Source: Candidatus Hydrogenedentota bacterium
GTDB lineage: Bacteria; Hydrogenedentota; Hydrogenedentia; Hydrogenedentales; SLHB01
NCBI GenBank assembly: GCA_045863335.1
Contig: BTVY01000002.1
Coordinates: 64,001-128,000, forward strand
Length of the DNA stretch: 64,000 nucleotides
Direction: 5' to 3'
Shown here in pieces: positions 4,670 to 20,917 of the stretch. Every line of letters starts with the position of its first letter. Position 1 is the first letter of the stretch. The notes under the pieces were generated by a model. That model was not told where the DNA came from and did not search any database. It worked only from the letters and a program-made list of their open reading frames with translations. The position numbers were made by a program, and so were the translations under genes.

Positions 4670-6217
4670 GGCGACCAGGGTCTGCGTCGGAATCGCGATA
4701 GTGAAGGTGGAGCCTTTGCCGCGTTTACTTGCGAACGTAATGGTGCCGCCATGTTCGCGAATGATTTTCTGCGAACAGGCCAGGCCCAGGCCGGTACCTC
4801 GGGAGCCTTTCGTGGTGGCGAAGGCGGTGAACAAACGATCATACATTTCATCTGGTATGCCGCACCCGTTGTCCTGGACGTCGACACAGTAGTGGGTGTC
4901 GTCGCTGCGGGTTCGAATGGTTACTTCCCCCCCGTTTTCTTCACAGGCGTCGATGGCATTGCTTACGAGATTGAGAATGGCGCGATACACGCCCAGGCTA
5001 TCCAGGGGCAGGGGCCGTAGTTCGCTTTTTTCAACCTTCACCGTGACTTTTGCGAGCGCGGCTTGGGCCGCAACGGTATCCTTGATTTCGTCGATCAGGA
5101 GATTCAGGTCCGTGTTGGTCCGCTCCCCGCGCTGGTGGCGTGAATAGGTGAGCAAATTGAGCACGAGATCTTCAATGCGATCCACCGAGCGGCGAATCAG
5201 AGGCCATCCCTTTTGGATGTACTTCATTTCGTTGGTTTCGAGCGCCAGGTCGACGAACTCGGCGCCGCCCTTGATTCCGACGAGCATATTCTTTACGCAA
5301 TGGCCTAGTCCCGCAGTGGCTTGACCAATCGCAGAGAGCCGTTCCGTTTCGACCAGTTCCTGGTGGAGCTGGGCATTTTCAACGGCCACCCCGGCGACGC
5401 GGCCGATGGCCGTGAGAAGTTTCAAGTGGTCATTTTTGAAGACGACGTCGCTCGCGCCGGAGTCGACGTAAATGGCGCCGACAATTTCTTCGCGTCCGCA
5501 CAAGGGCACGCACATCGCGGCATGAATGCCGTGGACGACGACGCTTTCCGAACTGGAGAAATCTTCATGGGCATCCAGGGTCAACACTGAGTTGCGGTGC
5601 TCGAAAACGTGGTCGATCAAGGTACGGCTGAGGGGCAGGCTTCCGTTACGATCGTCGCGCGGGAGGCTGGCTCTCACGTCGGGGGACTTGTCGTGGGAGT
5701 CGAGCGTAAGAATGAACCCCCGCTTCACCGGCAAGGCCTCGAAGATGAGTTCGAGCAAGCGGTTCAGGAGATCGTCGAGGTCAAATATGGTACCGAGCAA
5801 CTGGGAAGCTTTGTAGAGAATAATCAAGCGATTGAAGTCCGGCTCTTTCAGCATGCGCGCGTACATGTCGCCGGCCTTCTCAAAGCTGATCGTCGCGCCC
5901 GTATCGGGTTTATCCTTATGCCGCGTTACCTTTGCGATACGGAAGGTGTGAGTGCCAACGGTGAACTCATCTCCCTCGTCAACCCGGAGACGAGAGACCT
6001 TCTGGCCGTTGACCAGGATGCCGTTGCGGGCGCCGAGGTCTTCGACTTTGACACTCTTGCCGTCGTTCCAGACGCGCGCGTGGCGCCGGGAGACCATGGA
6101 ATCTACCAGTACTACGTCGCATTCGGAAGCGCGGCCGATGACTAGACCTTCAGTGTTGATATCGTAAGTGCTGAGGTGTTTGTCACCTTGGTGGAGAATC
6201 AATTCGTACTGCGGCAT
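4664..6217 (-). CDS. FHA-GAF sensor histidine kinase
   Basis: FHA motifs (IGRASECD, VSRRHA, DLGARNG), a GAF domain, H-box GLGHCVKN, and NAIDA / DNGCG / GTGLGL boxes. GGGAGG RBS precedes ATG 6217. Confidence 0.9.
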   Translation of the reverse strand: MPQYELILHQGDKHLSTYDINTEGLVIGRASECDVVLVDSMVSRRHARVWNDGKSVKVEDLGARNGILVNGQKVSRLRVDEGDEFTVGTHTFRIAKVTRHKDKPDTGATISFEKAGDMYARMLKEPDFNRLIILYKASQLLGTIFDLDDLLNRLLELIFEALPVKRGFILTLDSHDKSPDVRASLPRDDRNGSLPLSRTLIDHVFEHRNSVLTLDAHEDFSSSESVVVHGIHAAMCVPLCGREEIVGAIYVDSGASDVVFKNDHLKLLTAIGRVAGVAVENAQLHQELVETERLSAIGQATAGLGHCVKNMLVGIKGGAEFVDLALETNEMKYIQKGWPLIRRSVDRIEDLVLNLLTYSRHQRGERTNTDLNLLIDEIKDTVAAQAALAKVTVKVEKSELRPLPLDSLGVYRAILNLVSNAIDACEENGGEVTIRTRSDDTHYCVDVQDNGCGIPDEMYDRLFTAFATTKGSRGTGLGLACSQKIIREHGGTITFASKRGKGSTFTIAIPTQTLVAS

Positions 6218-6460
6218 AGGCCTCCCTTGCGGCACAAGATGTTACTGCTAAAAACCTTATGGAATCCACCCAGAACTCTTGCAGTCTTAAGCGAATCCCG
6301 ATGCGTTGGCATGGCCAGACTTCAATTCGTCGCTGCGACGCTATTCCCCCGTATTTTATCACGTTTGAAACAGGCCTGTGGAATACCACGCCTCGAGATA
6401 GCGCTTGCAGCGGAGAAATACTGATGTTATATTCAGATGGTCAATCACTGGAATCAGCTC

Positions 6461-8728: not shown

Positions 8729-8791
8729 ATACACGACCGGGCGAGAGAAATTCGCGCATGCTATGGAAGTCGAGAATGCTCTGGACAACTC

Positions 8792-8965
8792 AACATCCCC
8801 CTCGGCCCTTCGGACCTGCCCCCTTCAAAGGGGGATTTTTCGCGGCCGCTTTGCGGCGCGGAAGCGGATCGTTCAGGTACTTGACTCGCGCAGATTCAGC
8901 TTTGAACGCTCGAACGACTACGATGGGCACAACTCCCCCTTCGAAGGGGGATCAAGGGGGATGTT
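8792..8965. repeat. MITE/REP-like element with CCCCCTT...AAGGGGG palindromic termini (copy 1)
   Basis: Terminal inverted repeats AACATCCCCC...GGGGGATGTT with internal CCCCCTTCAAAGGGGG palindromes. Homologous to 45877-46035 in inverted orientation. Confidence 0.8.
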
Positions 8966-9002
8966 CTTCCTCGTCGTTCCCAATGCACTTGGACGGCAAA
9001 TC

Positions 9003-10304
9003 ATGTCCGGCATGAAGGACAAACTCGAAGGGCTTCTCACGGGCAAGTCCGGCCTGATGAAAGGGTCAGACTGGATGCAGAAGCTGGACGACCTGCGCAG
9101 GCAACGGGAGTCCGGCGAGTTCGAGATTGACAAGGTCGTGCCGGGACGCGTGGTCGGCGACGATGATCTCGGCTTCTATCTGGTCCAGCAAGATTTCCCG
9201 CTCGACACGTTGCAAGGGGCTATCGCACTCGGAGCCGTGCTCGACGTGTGCGGGGATCACATCGCGTTGTCCGCTTCCGACGACGAACTCTGCGAGTTCG
9301 ATCCGCGCAAGGCTTTGTTCATCGATACCGAGACCAGCGGCCTCTCCGGCGGCACGGGAACAGTCGCATTTCTCATTGGGGTGGGGTACTTCGTCGATGA
9401 CGTGTTCCGGCTCGATCAGTGTTTCATGCGCGACTACGACGACGAAGAGCACATGCTCGAATACCTCGGTGAGGTGTTCAAGGGAAAAGAGGCGGTCGTC
9501 AGCTACAACGGCAAGAGCTTCGATTTGCCGCTGTTGCGCACACGGTTTATTCAGAACCGCATTCCGTTCAGGGGCGATTCGTTCCTGCATTTCGATCTGC
9601 TGCACGCGGCGCGGCGGTTCTGGAAGCGCCGGTTAGGGGCCTGCAACCTGACGAATGTGGAACGGATGGTGCTCGGCATCGAGCGACATGGCGACGTGCC
9701 GGGCTTTGAGATCCCGCAACTCTGGTTTGACTACATCCGCACGCGCGACGCACGGCGGCTGGATGGCGTGTTCTATCACCACAAGATGGATATTCTCTCG
9801 TTAGTGGCGTTGACGGCGTGGCTGTCGCGATGTTTGTCCACCACCGAGGGCGGCGGATTCGAACACGCCGAGGACCATCTGTCCTTGGTGCGGGTCCTGT
9901 TTCTTCAGAAGAAATACACCGAGGTGGTCGTGCGGGGCGAGCGGCTCCTGGAGATCGAGGAACAGGGTGAACTGCGTAAGGAATGCCTGGAATTCATCGC
10001 CCTTGCCGCAAAGCGGCTGAACGACTGGCAGCGCATGGAGGACAGCTACACCCTGTTGCTCCAGGAGAATCCGACGAACCTCATTGCCCGCCTCGAACTG
10101 GCCAAGCATTACGAACACCGCGCGCGCCGTCTCCCGGACGCGGAACGCATGTGCTCAGAAGCGGTTGACTATCTGGAAACCCGCGCCACGCTCGGCCGCG
10201 CGACCGAATTCGAAGCCGCACCGCTCGCCGCGTTTCAGAAGCGCCTCGAACGCATCCGCCGCAAACTCGCCCGCGGCAAAGGGGACTTAGAGCCCGACCT
10301 GTAG
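9003..10304 (+). CDS. mrfB: MrfB/YprB RNase H-like (DEDD) exonuclease with TPR-like C-terminus
   Basis: FIDTETSGLSGGTGTVAFLIG, SYNGKSFD, HFDLLH, HHKMDILSL. Lies downstream of mrfA; start is 9003 or 9012. Confidence 0.88.
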   Translation: MSGMKDKLEGLLTGKSGLMKGSDWMQKLDDLRRQRESGEFEIDKVVPGRVVGDDDLGFYLVQQDFPLDTLQGAIALGAVLDVCGDHIALSASDDELCEFDPRKALFIDTETSGLSGGTGTVAFLIGVGYFVDDVFRLDQCFMRDYDDEEHMLEYLGEVFKGKEAVVSYNGKSFDLPLLRTRFIQNRIPFRGDSFLHFDLLHAARRFWKRRLGACNLTNVERMVLGIERHGDVPGFEIPQLWFDYIRTRDARRLDGVFYHHKMDILSLVALTAWLSRCLSTTEGGGFEHAEDHLSLVRVLFLQKKYTEVVVRGERLLEIEEQGELRKECLEFIALAAKRLNDWQRMEDSYTLLLQENPTNLIARLELAKHYEHRARRLPDAERMCSEAVDYLETRATLGRATEFEAAPLAAFQKRLERIRRKLARGKGDLEPDL

Positions 10305-10444
10305 CGCTCGGATTCCACGCCGGGCGGAACTGAATCCAGGATCTGACCATTTGGGGTCGTTGCCGCGAAAACGATAAGTGAGTCCGCAAAGAGAATGTCT
10401 TACGGTCCTCGCTGAAGACGCCCGGCGTGGAAGCCGGGCGCTAC
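10301..10444. repeat. GTAG-type REP doublet (REPIN)
   Basis: GTAGCGCTCGGATTCCACGCCGGGCG (10301-10326) and an inverted copy at 10419-10444 with 2 mismatches. The first copy contains the mrfB stop codon. Confidence 0.8.
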
Positions 10445-10480
10445 TTCGGGGAGATTTTGAAACCCAACGAAACGTACCTT

Positions 10481-10508
10481 CAGCCTCCGGTCTCCAGCCT
10501 CCCGCCTC
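10481..10508. repeat. 4 x 7-bp tandem repeat (CAGCCTC)
   Basis: cagcctc-cggtctc-cagcctc-ccgcctc. Confidence 0.6.
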
Positions 10509-10528
10509 GTTTCTTACCCGCAATCAAT

Positions 10529-10558
10529 TTGACTTAACCATCGGCCGCGCGATACCAT
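10529..10558 (+). promoter_or_regulatory. sigma70-type promoter of tRNA-Pro
   Basis: TTGACT-18 bp-TACCAT, ending 11 bp upstream of the tRNA. Confidence 0.6.
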
Positions 10559-10569
10559 ACGCATTCTGT

Positions 10570-10647
10570 CGGGGTGTAGCGCAGCCCGGTTAGCGCGCTT
10601 CGTTCGGGACGAAGAGGCCGGAGGTTCAAATCCTCTCACCCCGACCA
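10570..10647 (+). tRNA. tRNA-Pro(CGG)
   Basis: Acceptor stem CGGGGTG...CACCCCG plus ACCA; anticodon arm CTTCG-TT CGG GA-CGAAG; T loop GGTTCAAATCC. Confidence 0.97.
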
Positions 10648-10650
10648 TTT
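10601..10650 (+). repeat. attL core (50 bp)
   Basis: CGTTCGGGACGAAGAGG...CCCCGACCATTT, identical to 20757-20806. Confidence 0.95.
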
Positions 10651-10663
10651 AAGTGCAATAAAA

Positions 10664-10699
10664 ACAGCGACTTACGAGTTAGATACCGTAAGTCGCTGT
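10664..10699. repeat. palindrome downstream of tRNA (ACAGCGACTTACG...CGTAAGTCGCTGT)
   Basis: 13-bp stem. The same GCGACTTACG/CGTAAGTCGC core recurs after attR at 20823-20854. Confidence 0.7.
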
Positions 10700-10718
10700 A
10701 CTATTTCTAGTGGCTAGC

Positions 10719-10737
10719 CTGTCCCGTATCTGTCCCG
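10719..10737 (+). promoter_or_regulatory. putative integrase arm-type sites, left
   Basis: CTGTCCCGTATCTGTCCCG (two CTGTCCCG units, 11-bp period), identical to 20609-20627. Confidence 0.75.
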
Positions 10738-10828
10738 AGCGACAAGGTATTCTAACCAGCAAAACCGTTCTTACGTGAGAATACAATGGCCATCTTTATG
10801 TGTTATACTCAATTTGGAGGGTAAATCC

Positions 10829-11389
10829 ATGTCGTTCACATTCCGGCTTCCGAAAGTTGTTCAGGAAGTCGGCGTCATCCTCAATCAAGTGCCGGAGCAT
10901 CGCTTTAACTACACGATGCTTCTGAAGATCCTTTACTTGGCAGATCGGGAAAGCCTCGCGGAAGTTGGACATCCAATTAGCGGGGACATTCATGTTGCCA
11001 TGCCGCGCGGTCCGGTCCTGAGTCGCGTATGCGATTTGATCCGACAGACGAATTATGTCTCAGAAGAGCAATCGGAGTACTGGTCTAAGTTCTTTGAGAC
11101 AAAAAGAAAGGAATTGGTCCTGAAGGCAAGCCCTGGAACGGATCATTTGTCCAAATACGAAATTGAAAAGCTTCAGACGCTAACCGCCAAACATAAGAAG
11201 ACACTCCTCGGGAAGATGCTTGACTTCGTGGGGGACTTGCCGGAGGTCAAGAAGAACAAGAGAGGTTCCTCTCGAAAGGCAATTCCGCTGGAAGACATTC
11301 TTGTTGCCGTTGGCCGAGAGGACAGCATCGCAGAAATTCGCCAGAATCAGGCCGAGGATGAGTTCTTGGCAAAGATCCTCGGTGATTAA
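10829..11389 (+). CDS. Panacea-domain (SocA/DUF4065-like) antitoxin
   Basis: YTMLLKILYLADRESLAEVGHPISGD...AMPRGPVLS motif. GGAGGG RBS and extended -10 TGTTATACT at 10801-10809. Confidence 0.85.
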   Translation: MSFTFRLPKVVQEVGVILNQVPEHRFNYTMLLKILYLADRESLAEVGHPISGDIHVAMPRGPVLSRVCDLIRQTNYVSEEQSEYWSKFFETKRKELVLKASPGTDHLSKYEIEKLQTLTAKHKKTLLGKMLDFVGDLPEVKKNKRGSSRKAIPLEDILVAVGREDSIAEIRQNQAEDEFLAKILGD

Positions 11390-11776
11390 ATGCCCCCCGG
11401 TAGATGGGAAGGTGGGGATTCGTTTTTCCTAAGCGCCGCCGGTTCTCACCTCTATTTTTTGCTTCATGTACCCGTCGAAGAGAGCGTCGTGGTCGTCAAC
11501 TTCATTACAATAAGAGAGTGGACAGATCCACCGTGTGTCATCTATCCCAATGAGCACGACTTCCTAACTGAAAAGTCAACTATAAACCTTTCTCGTGCCC
11601 GACTTTGGACAACCCAACAACTAACGACAAGTGAACAAAGCAATCTACTCAAGCGCCATATTCGCGTGTCAGATACGATAGTGAGCAAGGCTCTCAAGGC
11701 CGTCTCGAAATCGCAAGTCATAGAGACTCGGGTTCTTGATTTCTTGCGCATTCATGGGCTTATCCAAGTTGATTAG
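11390..11776 (+). CDS. putative PanT toxin, PemK/MazF-like fold
   Basis: Abuts the antitoxin stop (TAA-ATG). Pattern GDSFF...HLYF...VVVNFITI...D..CVI...EHDFL...STI. Low GC. Confidence 0.6.
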   Translation: MPPGRWEGGDSFFLSAAGSHLYFLLHVPVEESVVVVNFITIREWTDPPCVIYPNEHDFLTEKSTINLSRARLWTTQQLTTSEQSNLLKRHIRVSDTIVSKALKAVSKSQVIETRVLDFLRIHGLIQVD

Positions 11777-11810
11777 GTGATTCGACGCCCGTTCGCAGAA
11801 TTCACACGGT

Positions 11811-12317
11811 CTACACTGCCCCACACGGCGCGATCTCCTTTTCCGCAAGGGAATCATTCAACCGTTTCGCGTCCTTTTCGATGCCTCGCACGAATTGACG
11901 CACCAATCTTTCGAGACTCCGCGCCGCGCCGGTAGGATCGCCGCACCAAATCACATGCACGTTAGCCCGCGTCTGTATCGCCGCGAGACTCGCAAGGATC
12001 GATTGCGGACGCGCCAGGCTTCGGTATTGCCGGAAATGAATCTCCGCTTCCAGCCCTTCCACGAGGATCGCGCGGAATCCGAATTGCCGTAGCTTCTCAA
12101 TCTCGCGCATGAACCGATCCCGCTCGCCCGTGAGACTCGATACCAGATCGTCCAATGACTTCCGCTCCACGATGAACCGGGGATTGTTCCAATCGCTGAA
12201 TCCACGGATGCCATAATCGCCCACGGGCAACGTCACGGTTTCGAGCCGGTACGCTTCAATCGGAAGGATGGATTGCTCCCGCGTGTCAACCTGAACGATT
12301 GGGCTTGGCGTGTTCAT
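11811..12317 (-). CDS. ERCC4 (XPF/Mus81-type) domain nuclease
   Basis: VDTREQ, TLPVGDY, and VERKSLDD (ERKxxxD catalytic motif). Confidence 0.88.
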   Translation of the reverse strand: MNTPSPIVQVDTREQSILPIEAYRLETVTLPVGDYGIRGFSDWNNPRFIVERKSLDDLVSSLTGERDRFMREIEKLRQFGFRAILVEGLEAEIHFRQYRSLARPQSILASLAAIQTRANVHVIWCGDPTGAARSLERLVRQFVRGIEKDAKRLNDSLAEKEIAPCGAV

Positions 12318-12321
12318 GGAA

Positions 12322-12591
12322 TCAATCCCAGTCCCCGTCTGGTTGAACATGGGGCACCTCGATACGGTCCGGTCCAAACAGATAGATTGAATCTTCGTCG
12401 CCCCGTGTCCCGCGCGACTTCGGCCACGGTCCGGCCAATAGTCCCGATTTCTGCGCCCGTGTCATGACGGCTTCGCACAATGGCTCCCAACACCGATCCG
12501 GTACGTCGGCTTCGATGAACGATTGAGACAGCACGCCCTCAAGCCATTGTTCTTTGGAAAAGTGGAATCCATCATTGCGACACTTCGCCAT
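12322..12591 (-). CDS. hypothetical protein (89 aa)
   Basis: GAAAGGA RBS before ATG 12591; stops 4 bp before the ERCC4 start. Confidence 0.55.
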   Translation of the reverse strand: MAKCRNDGFHFSKEQWLEGVLSQSFIEADVPDRCWEPLCEAVMTRAQKSGLLAGPWPKSRGTRGDEDSIYLFGPDRIEVPHVQPDGDWD

Positions 12592-12777
12592 TGCCGATCC
12601 TTTCATGGGGTGCGGGACGCCGCGAAGCGGAGAAAAACGCGACGCCCCGCCAGGAGAGGGAGATGAGACCGTTAAACTTTTTGCTCGGCCTCGGGGACGG
12701 CGCAAACGACTAGGCGATATGCGCCGCCCCCGTGCTGCGAGTAATCGCGCGAACTACAGGTCCGCGCAAGGAATGCA

Positions 12778-13491
12778 CTAGATACTCGCTGACGCGCCTA
12801 CCTTCTGCGTGACAGCGCCGTCCGGTTTCCCGCGCAAGAGCACGACGGCCACATTGCTATTGGCCGTGGTCGTGACTTTGCACGCGATATGGGTGAATCC
12901 ATCGCTCAGATCAAAATCGTCCAGTTCCACGTACGCTTGCGCTTCAACCGTGGCAATCGTGAACGTCGCATCTTCGGACGAAATCGTGAGCACGCGCGAG
13001 CCGGGATCGTCCACAGTCAACGTGATCGTACCGGTATTCGCCGCCGCCGTGACGCCCGGTACGCCGTAGGTCGCATCGTTGATCAAGCCCGCCAGCGCCG
13101 CCGCGTCTGCGGTATCGTCGCCGTCAATCTTGAATTCCCGATCCGCCGCCGTGGTCGTGTCGGTGTGCGCGGTGAACGTGAGACCGTTGATAACGATGGC
13201 CTCGCCATTCAGGACGGTCGCCAGTGCGATAGTCGCTTTCGTGACGTTCGTGTTGGCCGTGATCGTGGCCGTCGCGCCGCTGATAAGCTGTGCGCCGGTA
13301 CCGTCCTCGTCGGACGCCTCGAATACTTCGATCTTCGTGGTTTTGGTAGCCGCCATTGCGCCGCCGTTCAGGATTGCCAACGCGGAGCCGTAGTCCTTCA
13401 TGGCGAAGTATCGCCCCGTGGCGTTGGTATTGTTCAAGGCTTGCGAGACAAGCCCGATGTCAATCTTCTGTGCTTCATACAATCGGTTCAT
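12778..13491 (-). CDS. putative capsid cement/decoration protein with inserted beta-rich domain
   Basis: Starts 15 bp after the capsid stop with a GAAGGA RBS. Ala/Thr/Gly-rich, beta-type virion-protein composition. Confidence 0.6.
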   Translation of the reverse strand: MNRLYEAQKIDIGLVSQALNNTNATGRYFAMKDYGSALAILNGGAMAATKTTKIEVFEASDEDGTGAQLISGATATITANTNVTKATIALATVLNGEAIVINGLTFTAHTDTTTAADREFKIDGDDTADAAALAGLINDATYGVPGVTAAANTGTITLTVDDPGSRVLTISSEDATFTIATVEAQAYVELDDFDLSDGFTHIACKVTTTANSNVAVVLLRGKPDGAVTQKVGASASI

Positions 13492-13506
13492 GATCTGTTT
13501 TCCTTC

Positions 13507-14859
13507 TTAGGCCAGGATGCCGGTGATCTTGGTGAAGTGAGTCGGGCGAAGGATCGCGAAGTCCATCCGCATGTATGCGCGAATCAGGACTTGCAGACGG
13601 GAGAATGCTTCATCGCCCGTGCTGCCGCCGCCGGTTTCCGCGATCTTCATCTTCAGCGAAGTCCGCATACCGAATAGGCATTGCTGAAAGTCGCCGACGA
13701 ATGCCGCGCTCGCCACGCTGGACGTGCCCTGCGTCAAGGTGTTGCCGATCTGGTTCGTGACGTACTTCGCCAGATTCTTGTAGCTGTCCGGCGGAGGCAA
13801 GGGATCGCCGTTACCGTTGATCAGCCTGTCCAGCGTGCCCGCCGTCCGGGGGTTGTAGATCGTCGCGTTCGGTTCACCGTTCGCGTTCTGAATGGCTTGC
13901 ACGGCTTGACTCCAATCGTTGTAATCGGTCGGGACCGCGCCATTCGCGCCAAGGCTTTGCTCGTTCAGGTCGCTATGGTTGAACAAGCCCTTGGGTTCGC
14001 CCACGCCGCTGCCGAACAGCGCTACACGGTCGATCTCCAGCGCCAACGCCGACGCCATGGAGTTCTCAAGGGTGCTCACGAAATTGTCCGCGTCCTCGAT
14101 CAACTCGATGGATGAACGGACAAGGCATCCGATGGTTTTCGCCCGAAGGATGACCGGCGCGAGTGTCATGTCGCTTTCCGTGATTTCGGCATGCTCTTCG
14201 CGCCAATACGCGGTAGGATCGCCGGTGACTTTGACGAGGGTAAGCTCGCTGGAATCCATCGGGATCGTGCCCGCGCCCGCCTGGATGACACGCGCCTTGT
14301 TTCGCGCCGCATCGATGACGCGCATCGACAGGACGGACGGAACGAAGAAACCGCCGCCCGCGCCCGTGCCTTGGCCCATGGCCCGGAGTTCGGACTGAGA
14401 CTGCGACCAGTCACCCAACGCCGCCGCGCGGACCAGCCGTTGCAAGCTCAGCTCCTCGGGTTCGATGCCGTCCGGCAATTCGTTGGCGAAGCGATTGCGA
14501 AACACGTCCGCCATGCGTGCCTCGGGACCGATGCACGGCACGCGATCCCCGCTCTTGGTTTCAAACGTCATGCGGGCGCTAAAACCGCCGGCGTTGGGGT
14601 GCGTGGAATCGTGTGTGTCGCCACGGCCCGGAAGGATGCGCCCTTCGTTCACGCTGCGGGACATTTCAGCATCAAGATCGTTGACGCGCTCAGCCGACTT
14701 GATTTGGTCGCCCATGCCGTCAACTTCCGCATTCAACTTGTCCCACTTCTCGCGCTCTTCAGCTTTGAAATCGCGGGATTCTTTCTGAATCGTCTCGGCC
14801 ATTTGCTTGATCTCAGAGACCAGCTTGGCCCGCTTCTCGCGTAGTTCTTTCAAATTCAT
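13507..14859 (-). CDS. phage major capsid protein, HK97 family
   Basis: Coiled-coil delta-like N-terminus; GGGFFVPSVLS..VID, W..E, SIELIED, FGSG.GEPKG, GDF, and R.DFAILRP.HF motifs. Confidence 0.93.
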   Translation of the reverse strand: MNLKELREKRAKLVSEIKQMAETIQKESRDFKAEEREKWDKLNAEVDGMGDQIKSAERVNDLDAEMSRSVNEGRILPGRGDTHDSTHPNAGGFSARMTFETKSGDRVPCIGPEARMADVFRNRFANELPDGIEPEELSLQRLVRAAALGDWSQSQSELRAMGQGTGAGGGFFVPSVLSMRVIDAARNKARVIQAGAGTIPMDSSELTLVKVTGDPTAYWREEHAEITESDMTLAPVILRAKTIGCLVRSSIELIEDADNFVSTLENSMASALALEIDRVALFGSGVGEPKGLFNHSDLNEQSLGANGAVPTDYNDWSQAVQAIQNANGEPNATIYNPRTAGTLDRLINGNGDPLPPPDSYKNLAKYVTNQIGNTLTQGTSSVASAAFVGDFQQCLFGMRTSLKMKIAETGGGSTGDEAFSRLQVLIRAYMRMDFAILRPTHFTKITGILA

Positions 14860-15015
14860 GGTTTCAAAACCTCATGTTTCGTTTCGTTCGTTCAACTCTG
14901 GCGTGCTGCCATGCGACTGGGCGCGTGGCGTTTCGCCGCTACCTTCGACGCTTGGGGTTGACTAGGCCGCCCCGTCGCGCCGTGGCCCGCTTAACCCCGC
15001 TGTGCGGGGGTGTGC

Positions 15016-15267
15016 TCAACTTTCAGTCCGCCGGTATGTGGCCTCGACGGCTTCGTGCATTTCGGCTTCTGTGAATTTGTGCCCTATGTGCGCTTCAATT
15101 TCTGCGCGCATATCGGGAACCAGTCGTGCCCACGCCGCGCCATGAACCGGCCAATAGGCGCGATACTTCCGCAAGTACGCCCCGCCCAACTTGGCGATCC
15201 TTTTTACCTCGAAATTGCTGAGCGGTTGCATGCCGCGTGCAATCCCCTTGCGTCGTACCTTTGGCAT
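15016..15267 (-). CDS. hypothetical protein (83 aa)
   Basis: TAATG overlap with the TerS stop; lies between TerS and capsid. Confidence 0.6.
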   Translation of the reverse strand: MPKVRRKGIARGMQPLSNFEVKRIAKLGGAYLRKYRAYWPVHGAAWARLVPDMRAEIEAHIGHKFTEAEMHEAVEATYRRTES

Positions 15268-15611
15268 TAACGTGATCTCCCTTCGGTTCCGACTGCTTTC
15301 GGTGGTCGGGGTGCCTCTATCGGCCCGCCCTCGAAATCAAGCCCGAGTTCCCGCTGAATCCGTACCGCCAACGTGGTAGCGTCTCGCTCGATGCCGCATG
15401 CCGGGTTTGCCTTCCATTCGCCGAAACGGTTTTGCACAAGCTCGCCCTCGGCTTCGATCAACTTCCGCGCAGCCCGTGCCCGGTCCAACTGGGTGCAAAG
15501 GTTTTCGAGTAGGTTCAAGTGATGCCTTTCGAGGTTGAAATCCGCCACGATGGATCGCCAGAGTGCTTTAGACTCCCGGCTAAGGTGTGTCGGTGGTTTT
15601 GGAGTGTTCAT
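15267..15611 (-). CDS. terS: phage terminase small subunit, P27 family
   Basis: PKPPTHLS.E.K..W..IV...LLENLC...A...I..EG.....G..KANPA..I........RELGL signature. Confidence 0.88.
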   Translation of the reverse strand: MNTPKPPTHLSRESKALWRSIVADFNLERHHLNLLENLCTQLDRARAARKLIEAEGELVQNRFGEWKANPACGIERDATTLAVRIQRELGLDFEGGPIEAPRPPKAVGTEGRSR

Positions 15612-15644
15612 GTTCTCGAATCCTCAAATTTCGGTTTCAACCGG

Positions 15645-15720
15645 GTAGGCACGTGCAAGCGAACGCCTAGGCACACGGTACACAACCGCCGGTTGCCAGA
15701 ATATCGACCCCCTACCCCTA
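15645..15720 (-). promoter_or_regulatory. putative cos packaging site
   Basis: Minus strand TAGGGGTAGGGGGTCGATATTCTG...TACCGTGTGCC...GCACGT immediately upstream of terS, the position and G-run style typical of HK97/P27-type cos regions. Confidence 0.55.
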
Positions 15721-15736
15721 TGTGCCTGTGCCGCCA

Positions 15737-16210
15737 TTAGTTACGCTCCTGTATGTCTATGCGCTCGGCGAGCATATTCTCTGCCGCTTGCCGTGTGCCG
15801 TAAATCCAGCCTAAGAGTTCGTCGCTTGCCTCGATGTGTCCGGGGTTCAACGCTTCCAGTTCGTCCGCGTTCGCCGTGGCCACGTCGATGTAGCCAATCA
15901 TGACGTTGCACGCCGCGATAAGCGCCGCGAGGTTGTCATCCTGCATGAAGTAATCAGCATCCCGCCGTTGAACGTCCGTTGATACCGTGTGCCCCAGCCG
16001 TTCACTGAGCACGGACGCTGCCCATTGACGTGTGGCGTACAAGAATCTCATCGTGTCATCCGCCGCGCGTGCCTGGTCTACCGTGGCCGTCCGTTGCTCG
16101 AATGCTGCGCTCATGGATGCATCGTTGTAGGCAATCAATACCGCGCATGCCTTGCCGATGTTGGCTAGACCCTCGTCGGTGAGTAATCCTTTGACTTCCG
16201 GCAAACTCAT
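15737..16210 (-). CDS. hypothetical protein made of two ~64-aa internal repeats
   Basis: AAGGAG RBS; two gaplessly alignable helical halves. Confidence 0.7.
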   Translation of the reverse strand: MSLPEVKGLLTDEGLANIGKACAVLIAYNDASMSAAFEQRTATVDQARAADDTMRFLYATRQWAASVLSERLGHTVSTDVQRRDADYFMQDDNLAALIAACNVMIGYIDVATANADELEALNPGHIEASDELLGWIYGTRQAAENMLAERIDIQERN

Positions 16211-16315
16211 GCTGCCGACTCCTTCCGCGTTTCCATCCCAAGGTTGCCGACAACGCGCGGGAGTATCTGTCCAACGCTCTCGATAGGTCCGCCGCGCCGG
16301 TGCTCAATAACCGGC

Positions 16316-16547
16316 GGGGGACAAAGTGTGCTGCAACCTGCGGACAGCACTTTGTCCCCCTTTAGGGGACGCCCTGTCCGTAGGTTTGGAGTATTGATAC
16401 TAAAGGACTTACAACTTACGGACAGGGTATCTTCACTTTTCGGCCTGTCCGTAGGTTTAGAAAGACTATTTAACGTATTGTTGCTCATTGCGTTACAACC
16501 TGCGGACAGGGTTCATTGTCCGCGCCTGTCCGTAGGTCCGTAGGTTT
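16316..16547. repeat. iteron cluster, putative replication origin
   Basis: About 6-7 copies of CCTGTCCGTAGGTT and its complement in alternating orientation, plus the GGGGGACAAAGTG...CACTTTGTCCCCC palindrome, at the 3' end of rep. Confidence 0.8.
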
Positions 16548-18074
16548 ACGAAGGGTAGGCCGTTGCTTGCCTTTTGTGGTCTCGGTTTCCTCGATAAGAA
16601 GCCCCGCGCCGATGCCGTATTTGATAGCGTCCCGCACCTTGTCACGGGTCGCGTTCGGGCCGAATTCGTCGCTCAATTTCTCGCGGAGCCATTCGCCGGG
16701 TTTGCCCTTGTAGATTTCCCATCGGGTGTAGGTGTGGTCCTCGGCTGCTATTTCGTCGGCAATTCGACGGGCGATCCTGGACTGGATATCTTTCAAGGTC
16801 TCGTCGCGTTGTCCGGCCATGTCGCATTCAAACCACACGCCGTCCTGATTCCGCAGGTACACGGCTCGGTCTGACAATGGAGTCCATGACGCCTTGGAGT
16901 GTTCCAGCCGCGCGAATAGCCTGGGGTTCGATATGCCGTAGTCCGTGACTTCCTTTTCGTTCAATTCAACAATTCCGAACATGCACCTTGCACTGTCGCG
17001 AATGGATGAAGCCCCACGCGCCGCCGCCGACTTTGCTTCCTTCTCTCTATCCTTCGGAACATGATGGACGGCCAATATCGCCGCGCAGTGTGGCGTGCTC
17101 AAGTCACGCAACCGAGACATAAAGACGGCCATTTCAGCATTACTGTTTTCATCAAACTGATGGAAATGGCATAGCGGATCGACGCAAACAAGGTCTGGCT
17201 TGAACGAGTCCACTTCCGCATGGAGCCACTTGTATGCGTCCGTGGTTCGTCCTGCGGCGTCCATCAACGGAATGCCGGGATTGCAGTAGAGCCGGAGATT
17301 CTCCGCGAAGGCCGCGCGATCCTCGTCGCTTAATCCGTAGGCATCCGAGAGCCGCGCCCAACGCCGCCAGACTTCCTCCGCGTCATCCTCAGAGCAGAGC
17401 CACAGCACGCGCAACCGGCTCGCAGGTCGAAACGCCGGGAGCAACGCCCGCCCAATGCAACCGGATGTCACAATGGCGAGTAGTACGCCGCTTTTCCCTA
17501 TTCCACCCTGACCCGTGAGCAGGATAAGCGAACGCCGCGCGATCATGTCGTGATAAAGGTATTCGATGGGGCGAGGTTCACCGGTGAGCCATTCGCTGGT
17601 ATCAACCGGGGATAGCGCCGAAGTCTTGCCCGCTGCTGCGGGTGTGTCTAGCTCCGCGAGTTTCGCTTGCAAGTCAGGGGCAGTGATTCCGCCGCGTAGG
17701 TACAGGTCCGCCAGGTGCCGCCCTTCGCGCTCTCGGTAGTCGGTGCGAATGATGTCGCCAAGACCCCAAGGGTTGCATGTTGGTTCCGCCGCCGCGAGTT
17801 CGGACACGTCGCCCGTGCTCACTTCCGCGCCGACTGCCAACCGATGCAACAGGATCGAGAGTTCCAACCGCCCGCCGCCTGCCGTGAGTTTGATAATTTC
17901 ACCGGCCACGACTCGGTGTAAAGTATCCGGCCAGGCTTGGGAAGGTATCGCCGCGAGTTCCGCCGCCGCATCGGGATCGCCTTTGATCGCAGTTCCGAGT
18001 AGGGATCGACACGCCGCGATTGTCGCTTCACTAGGGGCGTGCCCGTTGCGCCGGTGGGTTGCCGCGCCGTTCAC
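16485..18074 (-). CDS. AAA_25/RepA-type SF4 helicase with DnaB-N-like N-terminus and C-terminal wHTH-like domain
   Basis: Walker A GQGGIGKS, VCVDPL, AVHHVPK, ARGASSI. GTG start overlaps the upstream TGA. Confidence 0.85.
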   Translation of the reverse strand: MNGAATHRRNGHAPSEATIAACRSLLGTAIKGDPDAAAELAAIPSQAWPDTLHRVVAGEIIKLTAGGGRLELSILLHRLAVGAEVSTGDVSELAAAEPTCNPWGLGDIIRTDYREREGRHLADLYLRGGITAPDLQAKLAELDTPAAAGKTSALSPVDTSEWLTGEPRPIEYLYHDMIARRSLILLTGQGGIGKSGVLLAIVTSGCIGRALLPAFRPASRLRVLWLCSEDDAEEVWRRWARLSDAYGLSDEDRAAFAENLRLYCNPGIPLMDAAGRTTDAYKWLHAEVDSFKPDLVCVDPLCHFHQFDENSNAEMAVFMSRLRDLSTPHCAAILAVHHVPKDREKEAKSAAARGASSIRDSARCMFGIVELNEKEVTDYGISNPRLFARLEHSKASWTPLSDRAVYLRNQDGVWFECDMAGQRDETLKDIQSRIARRIADEIAAEDHTYTRWEIYKGKPGEWLREKLSDEFGPNATRDKVRDAIKYGIGAGLLIEETETTKGKQRPTLRKPTDLRTGADNEPCPQVVTQ

Positions 18075-18286
18075 CGCTCGCCCCCGTGCGTGTGCTGTTC
18101 TATCCACTCGTCCAACTGGTGAACGTCGTACCGAATCGTGCGCCCGATGCGAATGTACGGGGGTGCCGGAGTCCGGCCCGGTAGATTGCCTTGGCAACGG
18201 GAATTCGCGAGATACGACGGGGACATGCCAATGTATCGCGCCGCTTCCGCCGGGGATAGCAGTCTCGCCGTGATTGTGGGGTTCAC
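18071..18286 (-). CDS. AlpA/excisionase-like HTH protein
   Basis: LLSPAEAARYIGMS..YLAN.R..G...PPYIRIGRTIRY...LDEWI. Confidence 0.85.
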   Translation of the reverse strand: MNPTITARLLSPAEAARYIGMSPSYLANSRCQGNLPGRTPAPPYIRIGRTIRYDVHQLDEWIEQHTHGGER

Positions 18287-18483
18287 CGTGAACTGCCTCG
18301 CACGCCGCGAAACGCGTCAAGGCCCGCTTGGGTGACTCTCCATTGGCCGCCGCAACGGAATGTGCCTGGAATCACGCCCGCACGACACAGACGCCGCGCA
18401 GTTCTCGGATGGATTGACAACTGGGAAGCAACATCTTCAACCGATAGGTCTGGCTGCGATTCGATTTGTACCTTTGTGGCCAT
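18283..18483 (-). CDS. HTH_17 excisionase-like DNA-binding protein
   Basis: LSVEDVASQLSIHPRTARRLCRAGVIPG.FR.GGQWRV; GGGAG RBS. Confidence 0.82.
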   Translation of the reverse strand: MATKVQIESQPDLSVEDVASQLSIHPRTARRLCRAGVIPGTFRCGGQWRVTQAGLDAFRGVRGSSR

Positions 18484-18574
18484 TCTCGGACTCCCTTTGG
18501 TTCGTCTGTCCGAGTTGTACCACTTGTCTGTCATGACATTCGATATGAATGTCACACTTTCTGTAGGTGGGAGT

Positions 18575-19201
18575 TTACGAAGTTTCTTTGATGATGCGCA
18601 GGACTTGACGCTTACCTACAGTAGGCCATGAATCGCGCAGCCGGTGTTCGTTGATTTTGCGCAGGACATGATCGGCCACGGCACTTTGTGACGCGTTCTC
18701 GCGACTCGCTTTGAACGCGCGTGCTGTGTCCTTAATGAACTGGTCGCGGGGCGATAAGGTATTGCGCTTCTCCGCCTCTCGCCCTTGTTGCTCTTCATGC
18801 GCCCGCCGCCCCTTCCGGGTGTCGGGTGCATCCGCGTAGGCATTGATAGTCTGTTCAACGCGCCCAAGCATCAGAGCACAGTTGATCGCGTTCGCAATGT
18901 CCCCCGCTTTGATGTAATGCCGAAGTATCACGATTTGATGTAGTGCCGCCTGTGCCGCGATTCTCATGCCTTGCACGCCCTGTAGTGAGTCAATCTGGCG
19001 TTGGGTGGGGTTCTTCGGTAGTCTGGGTTCCGGGACTTGATCCAATACCGTGCGGGCGCTTCGTTCAATCTTCGACAGCCGCGCTTCAATGGACGCGGAG
19101 GATACCCCCCCAACAACGAACAAAGTGCCGTCCGGCGTGTCGAATGTTAGGTCTGGGGTGACGTTTTTCCATCCGGTAGGTTTCGGCTTCGATTTCTTCA
19201 T
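18575..19201 (-). CDS. hypothetical protein, possible C-terminal HTH regulator
   Basis: Lies between int and the HTH genes. C-terminal SQSAVADHV...VGKRQVLRII. Start uncertain (19201-19243). Confidence 0.55.
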   Translation of the reverse strand: MKKSKPKPTGWKNVTPDLTFDTPDGTLFVVGGVSSASIEARLSKIERSARTVLDQVPEPRLPKNPTQRQIDSLQGVQGMRIAAQAALHQIVILRHYIKAGDIANAINCALMLGRVEQTINAYADAPDTRKGRRAHEEQQGREAEKRNTLSPRDQFIKDTARAFKASRENASQSAVADHVLRKINEHRLRDSWPTVGKRQVLRIIKETS

Positions 19202-19234
19202 GATGTTCGGCTCCATCTTCGGCATTAAATGAGC

Positions 19235-19289
19235 CGGGGACAATCCACTGCCGATTGTGTGGACTTTCGGCCCGTCGGCCTAGTCCCCG
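19235..19289 (-). ncRNA. structured RNA downstream of integrase (int-alpA-like motif)
   Basis: CGGGGAC-UAGGCCGACGGGCC-GAAA-GUCCAC...GUGGAU-U-GUCCCCG three-way junction, 15 nt after the int stop. Confidence 0.5.
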
Positions 19290-19304
19290 AACGACTAAAC
19301 TGTA

Positions 19305-20576
19305 CTACTTCCCGCTGCGTTTCTTCCTCGGAAACTTCACTACCTTCGCGCCGCGTGGTTCCGCGATACGTTCAACGGCTTCGCTCTTGTGCTCCGGTGC
19401 GAGATGCGCGTACCGCAGCGTCATGGTTAGATCGGAGTGCCCTAGCAGTTCGCGAACGGTGTTCAGGTCCACGCCCGCCATAACCAGCCGACTTGCGAAA
19501 TGGTGCCGGAGGTCGTGCCAGCGGAAGTTCTTGATCCCCGACTTCTCTATTAGCCCTTCCCATGAGGTTTTGACGTTATCCAGACGGCCCCCGTTCGGAC
19601 TGGGGAACACGTAGCCATGCGGAGGTACTTGATCGCGCCACGTCGCTAGTGTGGACCGTGCGACGGAGTTCAACGGCACATGGCGGGACTGTCCCGACTT
19701 GGCCGTATCTCCGCGTACCGTAAGCATACCGCCGTCAAGGTCAACATCTTCCCATCGGAGGTTGAACACTTCGCCGCGCCGGAGGCCGGTATTCATGGAC
19801 ACGATAACCATGGGTTTCAGATAGTCGGCATAGGCCAGCTTCCGCAGGTCCGTCAATTCGACACGATGACGATCCCGCCGCCACTTGTTGTAGCTGTCCC
19901 GCTTTGCCCTCATTTCTTCCTCGCGGGTGTCCAGTGCCTTTAACAGCGCCTTTTCCTCGTCGGCATCCAGATACCGCACCTTGGGTGCCCGGTCAAATTT
20001 CAGCCGCTTGGTTTTGGCGATAGGATGCGACGGTACGCGATCCCACTCAACCGCGCGGGACAGACAGGACCGCAGATCGTCAAGGTAGCGGTTTGTCGTG
20101 ACAGCCTTCGCGCCGTCCGCAATCATGGCCGCTCGCCACTTTTCCACACGGCCCGGTGTGACTTCCTGCAAGGGAACGTTCCAAAGGCTTGCGAACGCCG
20201 ATTTCATGTTTCGGAGCGTAGCCGCGCCGGTGCGCTTCGAGCGTAACCACAGGGGATCGTATTCATCCTCCACAAAGGCCCCTAGGGTCAACGGTGCGGC
20301 TTTCTTGCGCTCCGCGCCGGGGTCGATGCCCTTCGCCGCGTCTGCGGCTTTCAGGACGGCTTCCGCGCGTGCCTCTTGGGGCGTCATAGACTCCGCTCGC
20401 CCTATCTTCACCCGCCCCCGTGTTCCGTTGGGAAGCAGGTACCGGAGGTAGTACGTCCGCGCCCCGCCCGATTCGACTCGCAAGCTAAATCCGCGCAAGT
20501 CAGGATCGAACACTTCGTAAGGTTTCTCCTGGGGCGTGTACTTCGGTAAGTCCTTCGCCGTCAGCTTTCCTTTCAT
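19305..20576 (-). CDS. int: tyrosine integrase with N-terminal arm-binding domain
   Basis: N-terminal YEVFD..LRGFSLRV...G.RTY; catalytic TGLRRGE, K, HDLRH, LGH and Y. Adjacent to attR; GGAG RBS. Confidence 0.95.
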   Translation of the reverse strand: MKGKLTAKDLPKYTPQEKPYEVFDPDLRGFSLRVESGGARTYYLRYLLPNGTRGRVKIGRAESMTPQEARAEAVLKAADAAKGIDPGAERKKAAPLTLGAFVEDEYDPLWLRSKRTGAATLRNMKSAFASLWNVPLQEVTPGRVEKWRAAMIADGAKAVTTNRYLDDLRSCLSRAVEWDRVPSHPIAKTKRLKFDRAPKVRYLDADEEKALLKALDTREEEMRAKRDSYNKWRRDRHRVELTDLRKLAYADYLKPMVIVSMNTGLRRGEVFNLRWEDVDLDGGMLTVRGDTAKSGQSRHVPLNSVARSTLATWRDQVPPHGYVFPSPNGGRLDNVKTSWEGLIEKSGIKNFRWHDLRHHFASRLVMAGVDLNTVRELLGHSDLTMTLRYAHLAPEHKSEAVERIAEPRGAKVVKFPRKKRSGK

Positions 20577-20608
20577 CCGTATCACTCCTATAGTGCGTGT
20601 GCCGGATT

Positions 20609-20627
20609 CTGTCCCGTATCTGTCCCG
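20609..20627 (+). promoter_or_regulatory. putative integrase arm-type sites, right
   Basis: Identical 19-mer to 10719-10737. Lies between the int start and a minus-strand TGTTATACT extended -10. Confidence 0.75.
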
Positions 20628-20756
20628 GAGACAGTATAACACGGAGTAAGACGGTAGAAAAGCATGAATTTCGGATAGCCAATGTTTACGGGGGTTTTGT
20701 GGGGTATTTGCCTCGAAAGGCCGGATTAGAATCTACCGCGTTACACGGCAAAAATC

Positions 20757-20806
20757 CGTTCGGGACGAAGAGGCCGGAGGTTCAAATCCTCTCACCCCGA
20801 CCATTT
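20757..20806 (+). repeat. attR core (tRNA-Pro 3' fragment)
   Basis: 50-bp identity to 10601-10650; lacks the tRNA 5' half. Confidence 0.95.
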
Positions 20807-20917
20807 TAAATCTCCTCCAATTGGCGACTTACGTGCTATAATGCGTAAGTCGCCGTATTTTTCCCGGTGTTTATCGTATCTCCTCTGGCCCGATAGGTAA
20901 TTGAAGGAAGTGATCAA

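Follow-up and report, generated by a model that had tools for sequence, protein, structure and literature searches.

A candidate helper-dependent phage satellite with its own capsid, decoration-like, and small terminase genes in Candidatus Hydrogenedentota

PICIs (phage-inducible chromosomal islands) are defined as satellites carrying an integrase, a regulator, a primase-replicase, a capsid morphogenesis gene, and a small terminase gene, with no other structural genes (de Sousa 2023, PMC10085698; the satellite papers in this text are cited from excerpts). Among those described, EcCICFT073 has a head-decoration gene directly after its capsid gene and, in the excerpt, no portal or large terminase (TerL) gene (Fillol-Salom 2018, PMC6092414), and the RefSeq annotation of CFT073 agrees, placing the capsid and decoration genes at 1385668-1387070. 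PmCI172 has a capsid homolog and makes small capsids (PMC6092414), and Ccm of SaPIbov5, a Staphylococcus aureus pathogenicity island (SaPI), is a delta-domain capsid homolog that fills the pentamers of T=4 shells and was found cleaved, presumably by the helper protease (Hawkins 2021, PMC8569155). Capsid-forming PICIs (cf-PICIs), such as EcCIEDL933, need TerL, a portal, and connectors (PMC10085698; bioRxiv 10.1101/2022.09.08.507074). Outside the PICIs, Aguilar et al. 2026 (PMC13669383) reported direct-terminal-repeat (DTR) genomes of less than 11.6 kb with HK97 capsid genes, for which satellites were named as one explanation and whose dominant gut group is described with an integrase and a helicase and without portal, tail, or terminase; most of the marine VEIMEs (virion-encapsidated integrative mobile elements), as excerpted, are without capsid genes. 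Here we describe a 10,156-bp element at positions 10601 to 20806 of a 64,000-nucleotide stretch of a Candidatus Hydrogenedentota genome (assembly GCA_045863335.1, contig BTVY01000002.1, positions 64,001 to 128,000), which is referred to below as the window and whose numbering is used throughout. Because the element has its own capsid protein, decoration-like protein, and small terminase subunit (TerS) but no portal, motor, or tail, spread by borrowing from a helper is most likely, and we read it, with a probability of roughly 0.6, as a helper-dependent phage satellite of PICI-type architecture integrated in a tRNA-Pro(CGG) gene.

The 14 open reading frames (ORFs) of the element were scanned against Pfam, PHROGs, and NCBIfam, and eight of its proteins were run through PADLOC, which matched none of the eight. 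The packaging and head region consists of the following features.

15267 to 15611, minus strand: TerS of the P27 family (PF05119, Terminase_4, 36.9 bits against a cut-off of 24.7; phrog_83, 1.9e-15).
15016 to 15267, minus strand: basic ORF of 83 aa between the TerS and capsid genes, of no family.
13507 to 14859, minus strand: HK97-family major capsid protein of 450 aa with an N-terminal delta/scaffold region (PF05065, 2.8e-31; TIGR01554, 2.8e-43; phrog_10, 2.9e-52).
12778 to 13491, minus strand: orf237 (237 aa), a conserved jellyroll protein with an inserted domain, adjoining the capsid gene.
12322 to 12606, minus strand: ORF of 94 aa, whose open frame reaches 12705 and which travels with the capsid module in genome G105 of the same genus.
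11811 to 12377, minus strand: ERCC4-type nuclease (PF02732, 6.8e-19; phrog_3490, 5.3e-16).

The capsid protein is full length by both of its principal models, covering positions 1-279 of 280 in PF05065 and 1-384 of 385 in TIGR01554 (148.5 bits versus a cut-off of 27.5). PF05065 was its sole family at E<=0.01, with no encapsulin family among the matches; an encapsulin operon was therefore set aside, as the protein matches the viral family alone and TerS is present. Its best full-length matches in a homolog search were about 44% identical, its identity to proteins of 50,697 GenBank phage records was at most 26%, and a scan of the species genomes with this single protein returned a fragment in G105 alone. 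Neither the 83-aa nor the 94-aa ORF had a match in Pfam, PHROG, or NCBIfam; the N-terminal 49 aa of the former are 59% identical in a related element of genome G106, and the latter has an 80% identical copy in locus L011 (G105:C213), with a ratio of nonsynonymous to synonymous substitution rates (dN/dS) of 0.23.

The initial annotation had reported neither portal nor TerL in the element, and both the family scans and profiles built for this purpose bear that out. None of the 14 ORFs matched portal, TerL, prohead protease, tail, or lysis families in Pfam, PHROG, or NCBIfam, and none matched a holin, head-tail connector, adaptor, or HNH family. When 845 ORFs of the element and nine small relatives were scanned with profiles based on the portals, TerL proteins, and proteases that Pfam had verified in related loci, the element gave no portal or protease match even at E<=1, and its TerL rows were noise at E 0.16. 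The idea that the unassigned ORFs are portal or TerL fragments was rejected, as they had no profile match at E<=1 and are all at most 222 aa; with no unassigned ORF longer than that, there is no room for a divergent portal in this element. The unassigned ORFs of 83, 94, and 157 aa may be connectors.

Integration, regulation, and replication are covered by the following genes and sites.

19305 to 20642, minus strand: tyrosine integrase with an arm-binding domain (PF00589, 1.6e-31; PF13356, Arm-DNA-bind_3, 4.6e-14; phrog_1, 7.3e-71), its likely true start being the ATG at 20576.
18575 to 19243, minus strand: orf222 (222 aa), with a regulatory role assumed from position only.
18283 to 18555, minus strand: HTH_17 protein of 90 aa, an excisionase/AlpA-like MerR-type helix-turn-helix (HTH) protein (PF12728, 7.9e-11; excisionase PHROGs).
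16485 to 18320, minus strand: AAA_25 (RepA/DnaB-like) replicative helicase of 611 aa (PF13481, 5.1e-31; PHROG primase/helicase families).
16337 to 16536, no strand: iteron field, six copies of CYTRCGGACAG that alternate between the strands, immediately 3' of the replicase gene.
15737 to 16210, minus strand: orf157 (157 aa), internally duplicated, of no family.

All ORFs of the element are open, so that the statement in the initial annotation that no ORF is obviously broken holds. The co-oriented series that it had listed stands for the integrase, helicase, repeat protein, TerS, capsid, and ERCC4 genes, which are recovered by Pfam and PHROGs or, for the repeat protein, by a self-match; of the two HTH genes only one was detected, the supposed regulator (orf222) had no match in Pfam, PHROG, NCBIfam, or PADLOC, and the listed orf93 coincides with the iterons and probably does not represent a gene. 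In G105:C814, the corresponding place is taken by an orf222 relative of 35% identity. The family scans detected no primase domain in the AAA_25 helicase, and hence only the replicase half of a primase-replicase module can be pointed to. The CYTRCGGACAG motif occurs six times in the window against 0.09 expected, all within 16337-16536, and its arrangement suggests that this field is probably the origin of replication rather than a gene. The halves of orf157 align at 33% over 64 aa (E 3e-11); its sole relative in a search of 5.8 billion proteins was an 85% copy in G105, and a protein atlas search gave no usable match for it. By analogy, orf157 may occupy the slot that packaging-interference genes hold in other satellites.

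The boundaries of the element and the sites near them are as follows.

10570 to 10647, plus strand: tRNA-Pro (anticodon CGG; ARAGORN), the integration target, intact at the left junction.
10601 to 10650, no strand: attL, the left copy of a 50-bp repeat (tRNA 3' end plus 3 nt).
20757 to 20806, no strand: attR, the right copy of the 50-bp repeat.
10664 to 10699, minus strand: hairpin with a 14-bp stem (GCGACTTACG/CGTAAGTCGC) on the element side of attL.
10719 to 10737, plus strand: copy 1 of a 19-nt exact repeat (two matches in the window against 0.00 expected).
20609 to 20627, plus strand: copy 2 of the 19-nt repeat, in the arm between the integrase gene and attR.

The size of 10,156 bp is the spacing between the exact 50-bp direct repeats at 10601-10650 and 20757-20806, the only such pair in the window, and the repeat search confirms both the perfect repeats and the size given in the initial annotation. 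The tRNA-Pro(CGG) gene is the sole tRNA gene of the window. In G107:C240, from the same genus, the site is empty: the attL point is joined directly to the sequence from 20807 onward, with 90% identity along the right flank of attR. The alignment to this empty site also continues into the element up to 10699, and the hairpin stem at 10664-10699 is a copy of the chromosomal hairpin that follows attR at 20822-20855. The presence of the same 19-nt sequence in both arms fits an integrase with an arm-binding domain, and we regard these repeats as candidate arm-type integrase binding sites. Given the empty site in G107, the arm repeats, and the iteron origin, the element is a discrete, apparently intact, precisely inserted integrative element.

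Compared with the PICI definition, the element carries the five components at the level of function, its regulator being AlpA-like in a broad sense and its primase domain undetected. It has a terminal integrase within an att-flanked island, a replicase with an origin 3' of it, a capsid homolog, and TerS, and the 14 scanned ORFs include no tail, holin, portal, or connector family. As to regulation by alpA, merR, or stl genes, the 90-aa protein matches HTH_17 (7.9e-11) and excisionase PHROGs, and no Phage_AlpA match was listed for it at E<=0.01. As far as the excerpts go, PICIs of the EcCICFT073 and PmCI172 type resemble the element in being att-flanked islands of about 10 kb with co-oriented integrase, small HTH regulator, replicase with origin, and packaging genes, and some members of the Gram-negative PICIs carry terS, as it does. 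EcCICFT073 itself is described without a TerS homolog, whereas our element has TerS, adds the ERCC4 gene, and resides in another host phylum; by annotation, the 351-aa capsid and 111-aa decoration proteins of EcCICFT073 stand against a 450-aa delta-domain HK97 capsid protein and a 237-aa jellyroll protein. With SaPIbov5 the element shares an HK97-fold, delta-domain capsid homolog and the lack of portal and protease, SaPIbov5 relying on helper proteins. However, Ccm is limited to pentamers, a limit not known for the capsid protein here, and SaPIs of the cos type are reported to use the helper terminase directly through a cos site, whereas here both TerS and a decoration-like partner are encoded by the element itself. 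In PICIs of the SaPI1/SaPIbov1 type, the satellite TerS redirects the helper large terminase to satellite DNA, and the element likewise encodes its own TerS; those islands are described as resizing helper capsids by scaffold-like proteins and packaging by the pac (headful) mechanism, whereas the element has a capsid homolog instead.

The cf-PICIs have in common with the element an integrase, a regulator, a replicase, and their own capsid and TerS, and the nearest relatives of its capsid protein carry TerL, protease, and portal genes. The element itself has no TerL, portal, or protease and no detected HNH, adaptor, or connector, leaving at most 5 of 11 core components against 9-11 in the cf-PICI types as excerpted. 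The miniature "twilight-zone" HK97 genomes resemble it in size (less than 11.6 kb), in the HK97 capsid, integrase, and helicase, and in the lack of portal and tail; that group is reported from the gut, with encapsulin-like capsid domains and no terminase, whereas our element has a PF05065 capsid protein, TerS, and orf237 and is integrated rather than a DTR contig. Membership among P4-like satellites or PICI-like elements (PLEs) was set aside, as the scanned ORFs had no Pfam match to their marker proteins (dedicated models were not used). In the literature that we searched, from which subscription papers were largely absent, we found no description of the combination of TerS, capsid, and orf237 or of satellites in Hydrogenedentota. 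Nonetheless, to call it an undescribed satellite family, as the initial annotation had suggested, goes too far, given the five-part PICI gene set and, to judge from the excerpts, the precedents of EcCICFT073 and portal-less HK97 genomes. Its placement between PICIs and cf-PICIs is a fair description, because the capsid protein groups with compact elements, some of which carry a full head module. The element is a PICI-type design made of apparently sequence-unrelated parts in an unstudied phylum and is not a new kind.

IMG/VR and metagenome contigs were scanned with an alignment of orf237 homologs, and the resulting 120 distinct loci (74 of at least 5 kb) were classed with local marker profiles seeded by Pfam-checked proteins. 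The orf237 gene directly follows the capsid gene in 65 of these 74 loci. A portal match was found in 37 of them, and 28 had the capsid-orf237 pair with no portal match, about half of these 28 being cut too near the capsid gene to judge. The portal-bearing loci, some of them on viral contigs of 34-49 kb, are mostly arranged in the order (HNH-)TerS-TerL-portal-(protease-)capsid-orf237, which is the canonical one, so that orf237 is among the regular head genes in a group of uncultured HK97-like phages.

The orf237 family itself had 618 homologs at E<=0.001, many of them 55-72% identical and from assemblies labeled as different phyla, none with a Pfam domain. It is thus better conserved than the capsid protein (55-72% versus about 44%), and it had no match in the 50,697 GenBank phage records, and no cultured relative was found. 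In an AlphaFold (AF2) model with a predicted local distance difference test score (pLDDT) of 90.9, the protein folds as a jellyroll sandwich into which a further domain is inserted. This further domain is similar to those inserted in sheath and nozzle proteins (Z up to 11.3), and the jellyroll resembles XepA and YomS (Z about 10), with weaker matches, in a range that the tool classes as common, to cement proteins (chain G of the phage 7-7-1 capsid, Z 8.0; KHP40, Z 7.1; BPP-1, Z 6.8). Foldseek returned just two PDB matches at E<=0.001, with template modeling (TM) scores of about 0.33, and the BFVD matches were uncharacterized proteins. Modeled as a trimer, orf237 passed the controls, with an interface score (ipSAE) of 0.59 versus 0.01 for the best control, contact agreement of at least 75%, and pLDDT of at least 83; the mark for this score was reached by 20 of 30 solved homo-pairs and by 1 of 23 single chains. 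Based on gene position and fold class, we suggest that orf237 is probably a head decoration or cement protein.

Seven of the contigs are circular, as judged from terminal overlap or an exact self-repeat: L012 (6.4 kb), L100 (7.5 kb), L088 (8.4 kb), L107 (8.9 kb), L015 (9.1 kb), L069 (9.5 kb), and L018 (9.7 kb). None of the seven gave a portal match, and TerS is present on four, TerL on two, an S78 protease on two, and a tyrosine integrase on three. The small elements have their own, varied replication initiators; L018 shares the AAA_25 replicase and the ERCC4 gene with our element, and in L013 a serine recombinase accompanies TerS, a small ORF, the capsid gene, and orf237. The ERCC4 homolog of L018 (9133-9612) is 48% identical. 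Across the small elements, ERCC4 occurs in two (this element and L018) and HNH in five (L013, L015, L069, L076, and L132), never together in what is a small sample, and our guess would be that ERCC4 is an alternative packaging nuclease replacing HNH. A one-off deletion remnant whose relatives are full prophages was the case against its own reading that the initial annotation had put forward; the relatives, however, include complete small circles, and with the reduced gene set recurring on circles, the element is not a one-off remnant.

Some of these loci have further features. L082 (JABUBL010000111.1) has three tandem, diverged capsid-orf237 copies with 75-80% nucleotide identity at a spacing of about 7.6 kb, separated by repeats of about 65 nt with 92-97% identity, and looks like the result of serial integration at one att site. 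Large ORFs of 394-621 aa without a Pfam or PHROG family are present in L088 (3262-5127, 621 aa), L077 (2557-4335), L012 (2691-4028, 445 aa), and L018 (7274-8458, 394 aa) and might be divergent portals or replicases. On the circular 8.9-kb capsid-orf237-integrase element L107, a radical-SAM protein (6863-7663; PF04055, 7.4e-13) is present as cargo.

In a quick maximum-likelihood tree of 84 capsid rows with a midpoint root, a deep split (Shimodaira-Hasegawa-like approximate likelihood ratio test support, 99) separates 32 rows from 52. The clade of our element (32 rows) holds 16 small elements, four compact elements with a full head module, a fragment with protease only, a fragment in which TerL is next to the capsid gene, and 10 fragments that could not be classified; the other clade (52 rows) includes 36 phage loci with a portal or TerL, together with a subclade of four small elements. 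The four compact elements of the element's clade share the order capsid-orf237-protease-portal-int, and closest to our element in the tree are L014 and L019, both compact with a full head module (identity of up to 49%). When IMG/VR was scanned again, this time from capsid proteins of the clade, more compact elements were retrieved, e.g., L165 (9.2 kb; TerL-capsid-protease-portal-int) and L176 (10.9 kb). In this tree, most capsid proteins of the satellite type fall into a clade separate from the capsid proteins of full phages. The element belongs to widespread, uncultured capsid-plus-decoration mini-elements that grade into compact full-head elements.

As a separate observation, L014, L019, L024, L115, L165, and L176, all of about 9-11 kb, share the unusual order TerL ... 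capsid-(orf237)-protease-portal-integrase, are cf-PICI-like, and include the closest relatives of our element by capsid protein, L115 among them.

Four genomes of the genus combine such parts into different mosaics. In G105 (L011, C213), the C terminus of the capsid protein (98% amino acid identity), orf237 (97%), and the 94-aa ORF are followed by a different excisionase and integrase, and on another contig of that genome (C814), orf157 stands behind a replicase that is just 42% identical; there, an apparent start of a tape-measure-like gene (L241, 8153-8629), recognized by eye as an N-terminal fragment only, is in the TerS slot. On a 10,095-bp contig of G104 (L010, C125), genes for a capsid protein (42%) and an orf237 homolog are accompanied by those for an integrase and a PhageMin_Tail protein. 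The element in G106 (L162, G106:C14:58000-73000, about 4280-13000) is about 8.5 kb long and has the same tRNA-Pro and the same 50-bp att, with an integrase 85%, an AAA_25 replicase 88% (frameshifted, in at least two frames), and a TerS 50% identical to those described here; no capsid, orf237, ERCC4, or toxin-antitoxin genes were found in it. With a backbone without the module in G106 and the module on another backbone in G105, capsid modules appear to have been exchanged among backbones within the genus. In comparison with G105, dN/dS values are 0.10 (orf237) and 0.017 (62 codons of the capsid C terminus), with dS of 0.3-0.4, and they range from 0.02 to 0.25 across four genes; purifying selection acts on the capsid and orf237 genes, which are being retained. 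Contigs of sludge runs from two other studies also contained diverged copies of the element (90-99% identity).

Two observations concern the neighborhoods of these relatives. In L010, the tape-measure-like gene in the TerS slot (4588-6756; PhageMin_Tail, 5.7e-23) is accompanied by no other tail genes that we could see, and in L011 apparent restriction-modification genes (3526-4610), one a putative Dam-like methylase read from its translation, are located beside the alternative integrase.

If the element is indeed a helper-dependent satellite, its life cycle might proceed as follows. Upon infection by a helper, which would be an HK97-like cos phage not resident in the genome, the integrase and the HTH protein would excise the 10,156-bp circle, and the AAA_25 helicase would replicate it from the iterons. 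The satellite TerS would then bind a site on satellite DNA and recruit the helper TerL, while the satellite capsid protein would assemble on the helper portal and have its delta region cut by the helper protease, as reported for Ccm. The product could be a whole small satellite shell or, as with Ccm, a mixed shell in which the satellite contributes some of the capsomers; orf237 would decorate and stabilize it, and helper tails would be attached to complete the particle. We infer, in other words, an own shell combined with a borrowed portal, TerL, protease, and tail. More speculatively, the ERCC4 nuclease may resolve branched concatemers or stand in for an HNH packaging nuclease. The Panacea toxin-antitoxin pair is cargo and is encoded on the opposite strand at the left end of the element.

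10775 to 11389, plus strand: SocA/Panacea-domain antitoxin-like protein (PF13274, 4.1e-16), cargo, with no PADLOC match.
11390 to 11776, plus strand: ORF of 128 aa, starting directly after the stop of the Panacea gene (phrog_19071, 1.4e-5, only).

The 128-aa ORF had no Pfam, NCBIfam, or PADLOC match, and its position suggests that it may encode the toxin partner of a Panacea-type toxin-antitoxin pair. Outside the element, a sequence of about 40-55 nt at positions 8917-8975 (approximately) of the window is scattered in hundreds of near-identical copies (90-100%) through each of the six genomes of the genus; it resembles a dispersed repeat of the kind of a repetitive extragenic palindrome (REP) or a miniature inverted-repeat transposable element (MITE) and is located upstream of the probable true start of an RNase_H_2-domain gene (8535-10304).

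Several points weigh against reading the element as a helper-dependent satellite with its own shell. A delta-domain capsid protein without its own protease and portal needs a closely compatible helper, and the search for a helper prophage that the initial annotation had called for found none: in the genome (99.4% complete, 105 contigs) there were no matches to Phage_portal, TerL_ATPase, Terminase_6N, Peptidase_S78, or PhageMin_Tail, and the single Phage_capsid and single Terminase_4 matches both lie within the element. A resident prophage may have been missed by genome binning. The TerS match to TIGR01558 (40.2 bits) is under the NCBIfam trusted cut-off (45.6). In the likely source run, the full element is covered without a gap at a depth of 18.8 versus 17.7 and 19.7 in the flanks, and the att joint that had been proposed as a sign of excision was not seen in the assembled contigs of the sequencing runs (ten in all, none of them RNA), which gave no sign of excision, replication, or packaging and in which rare excised forms would be hidden. 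The capsid tree came from a short search, with sampling seeded by orf237 similarity, many rows that are unclassifiable fragments, and groups assigned from the DNA available for each locus. In EcCICFT073, according to the excerpt, deletion of the capsid or the decoration gene left transfer and interference unchanged, and DNA was packaged at phage size (PMC6092414); the carriage of such genes hence does not prove a satellite-specific shell.

An alternative explanation is that the element is a satellite whose capsid protein and orf237 do not build a shell of their own but act as Ccm-like capsomers that force small or mixed capsids, mainly poison helper assembly, or, as in EcCICFT073, are dispensable, with packaging specificity provided by TerS alone. 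The Ccm of SaPIbov5, which is described as forming pentamers only and as unable to build capsids alone, is consistent with this, as is the G106 relative, which at the same att site has an integrase, a replicase, and TerS and no capsid module. We nonetheless consider it unlikely, as the capsid protein spans the whole of the HK97 model and is under strong purifying selection, its nearest relatives are compact carriers of portal and protease that presumably build whole heads, and a dedicated decoration-like partner is always kept with it. It is quite improbable, in our view, that the element is the decaying remnant of a compact full-head (cf-PICI-like) element or prophage that integrates and excises and is no longer packaged. 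Although its closest capsid relatives (L014, L019, L024, L165, and L176) carry TerL, protease, and portal, its G106 relative has a frameshifted replicase and no capsid module, and neither a helper in the genome nor activity in the contigs was seen, decay is difficult to reconcile with ORFs that are all open, exact att repeats, and dN/dS values as low as those in four genes, or with a reduced gene set that recurs on seven independent circles and on elements with other recombinases and whose diverged copies appear in runs of two other studies.

An autonomous portal-less mini-virus of the "twilight-zone" HK97 kind, or a capsid-like compartment, is the alternative put forward by Aguilar et al. 2026; it would package or enclose its cargo without a portal or terminase motor and would suit the size of 10.16 kb, since the excerpted 5-11.6-kb class combines an integrase, a helicase, and an HK97 capsid with the absence of portal and tail. 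However, TerS proteins of the P27 type are known solely as TerL partners, genes for HNH, TerL, or an S78 protease are present in the related small elements, the capsid protein belongs to the viral family and not to an encapsulin family, and the replicase is an AAA_25 helicase rather than a rolling-circle HUH Rep, so that we regard this explanation as very improbable. Returning to the helper-dependent satellite, a bolder extension of it would see an unnamed, old, phylum-spanning lineage of 6-10-kb satellites with a core of HK97 capsid and orf237, a capsid clade of its own, a decorated satellite-specific shell around a borrowed portal, and interchangeable TerS, HNH, ERCC4, TerL, protease, and tape-measure-like parts, in which ERCC4 takes the place of HNH; we offer this extension tentatively, as a possible but doubtful one. 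If it is true, "classical" and "capsid-forming" satellites would form a graded series and not two types.

If confirmed, the element would carry the range of phage satellites into Hydrogenedentota, for which the collection searched has 135 species genomes. The lineage-level pattern is more worth following than the single copy, as it points to widespread, uncultured mini-elements that retain capsid and decoration genes while shedding portal and motor, and the orf237 family provides a handy marker for such satellites and their probable helper phages. The finding bears on the packaging of portal-less "twilight-zone" HK97 genomes and on the role of the capsid and decoration homologs of PICIs, which in EcCICFT073, as excerpted, had no phenotype.

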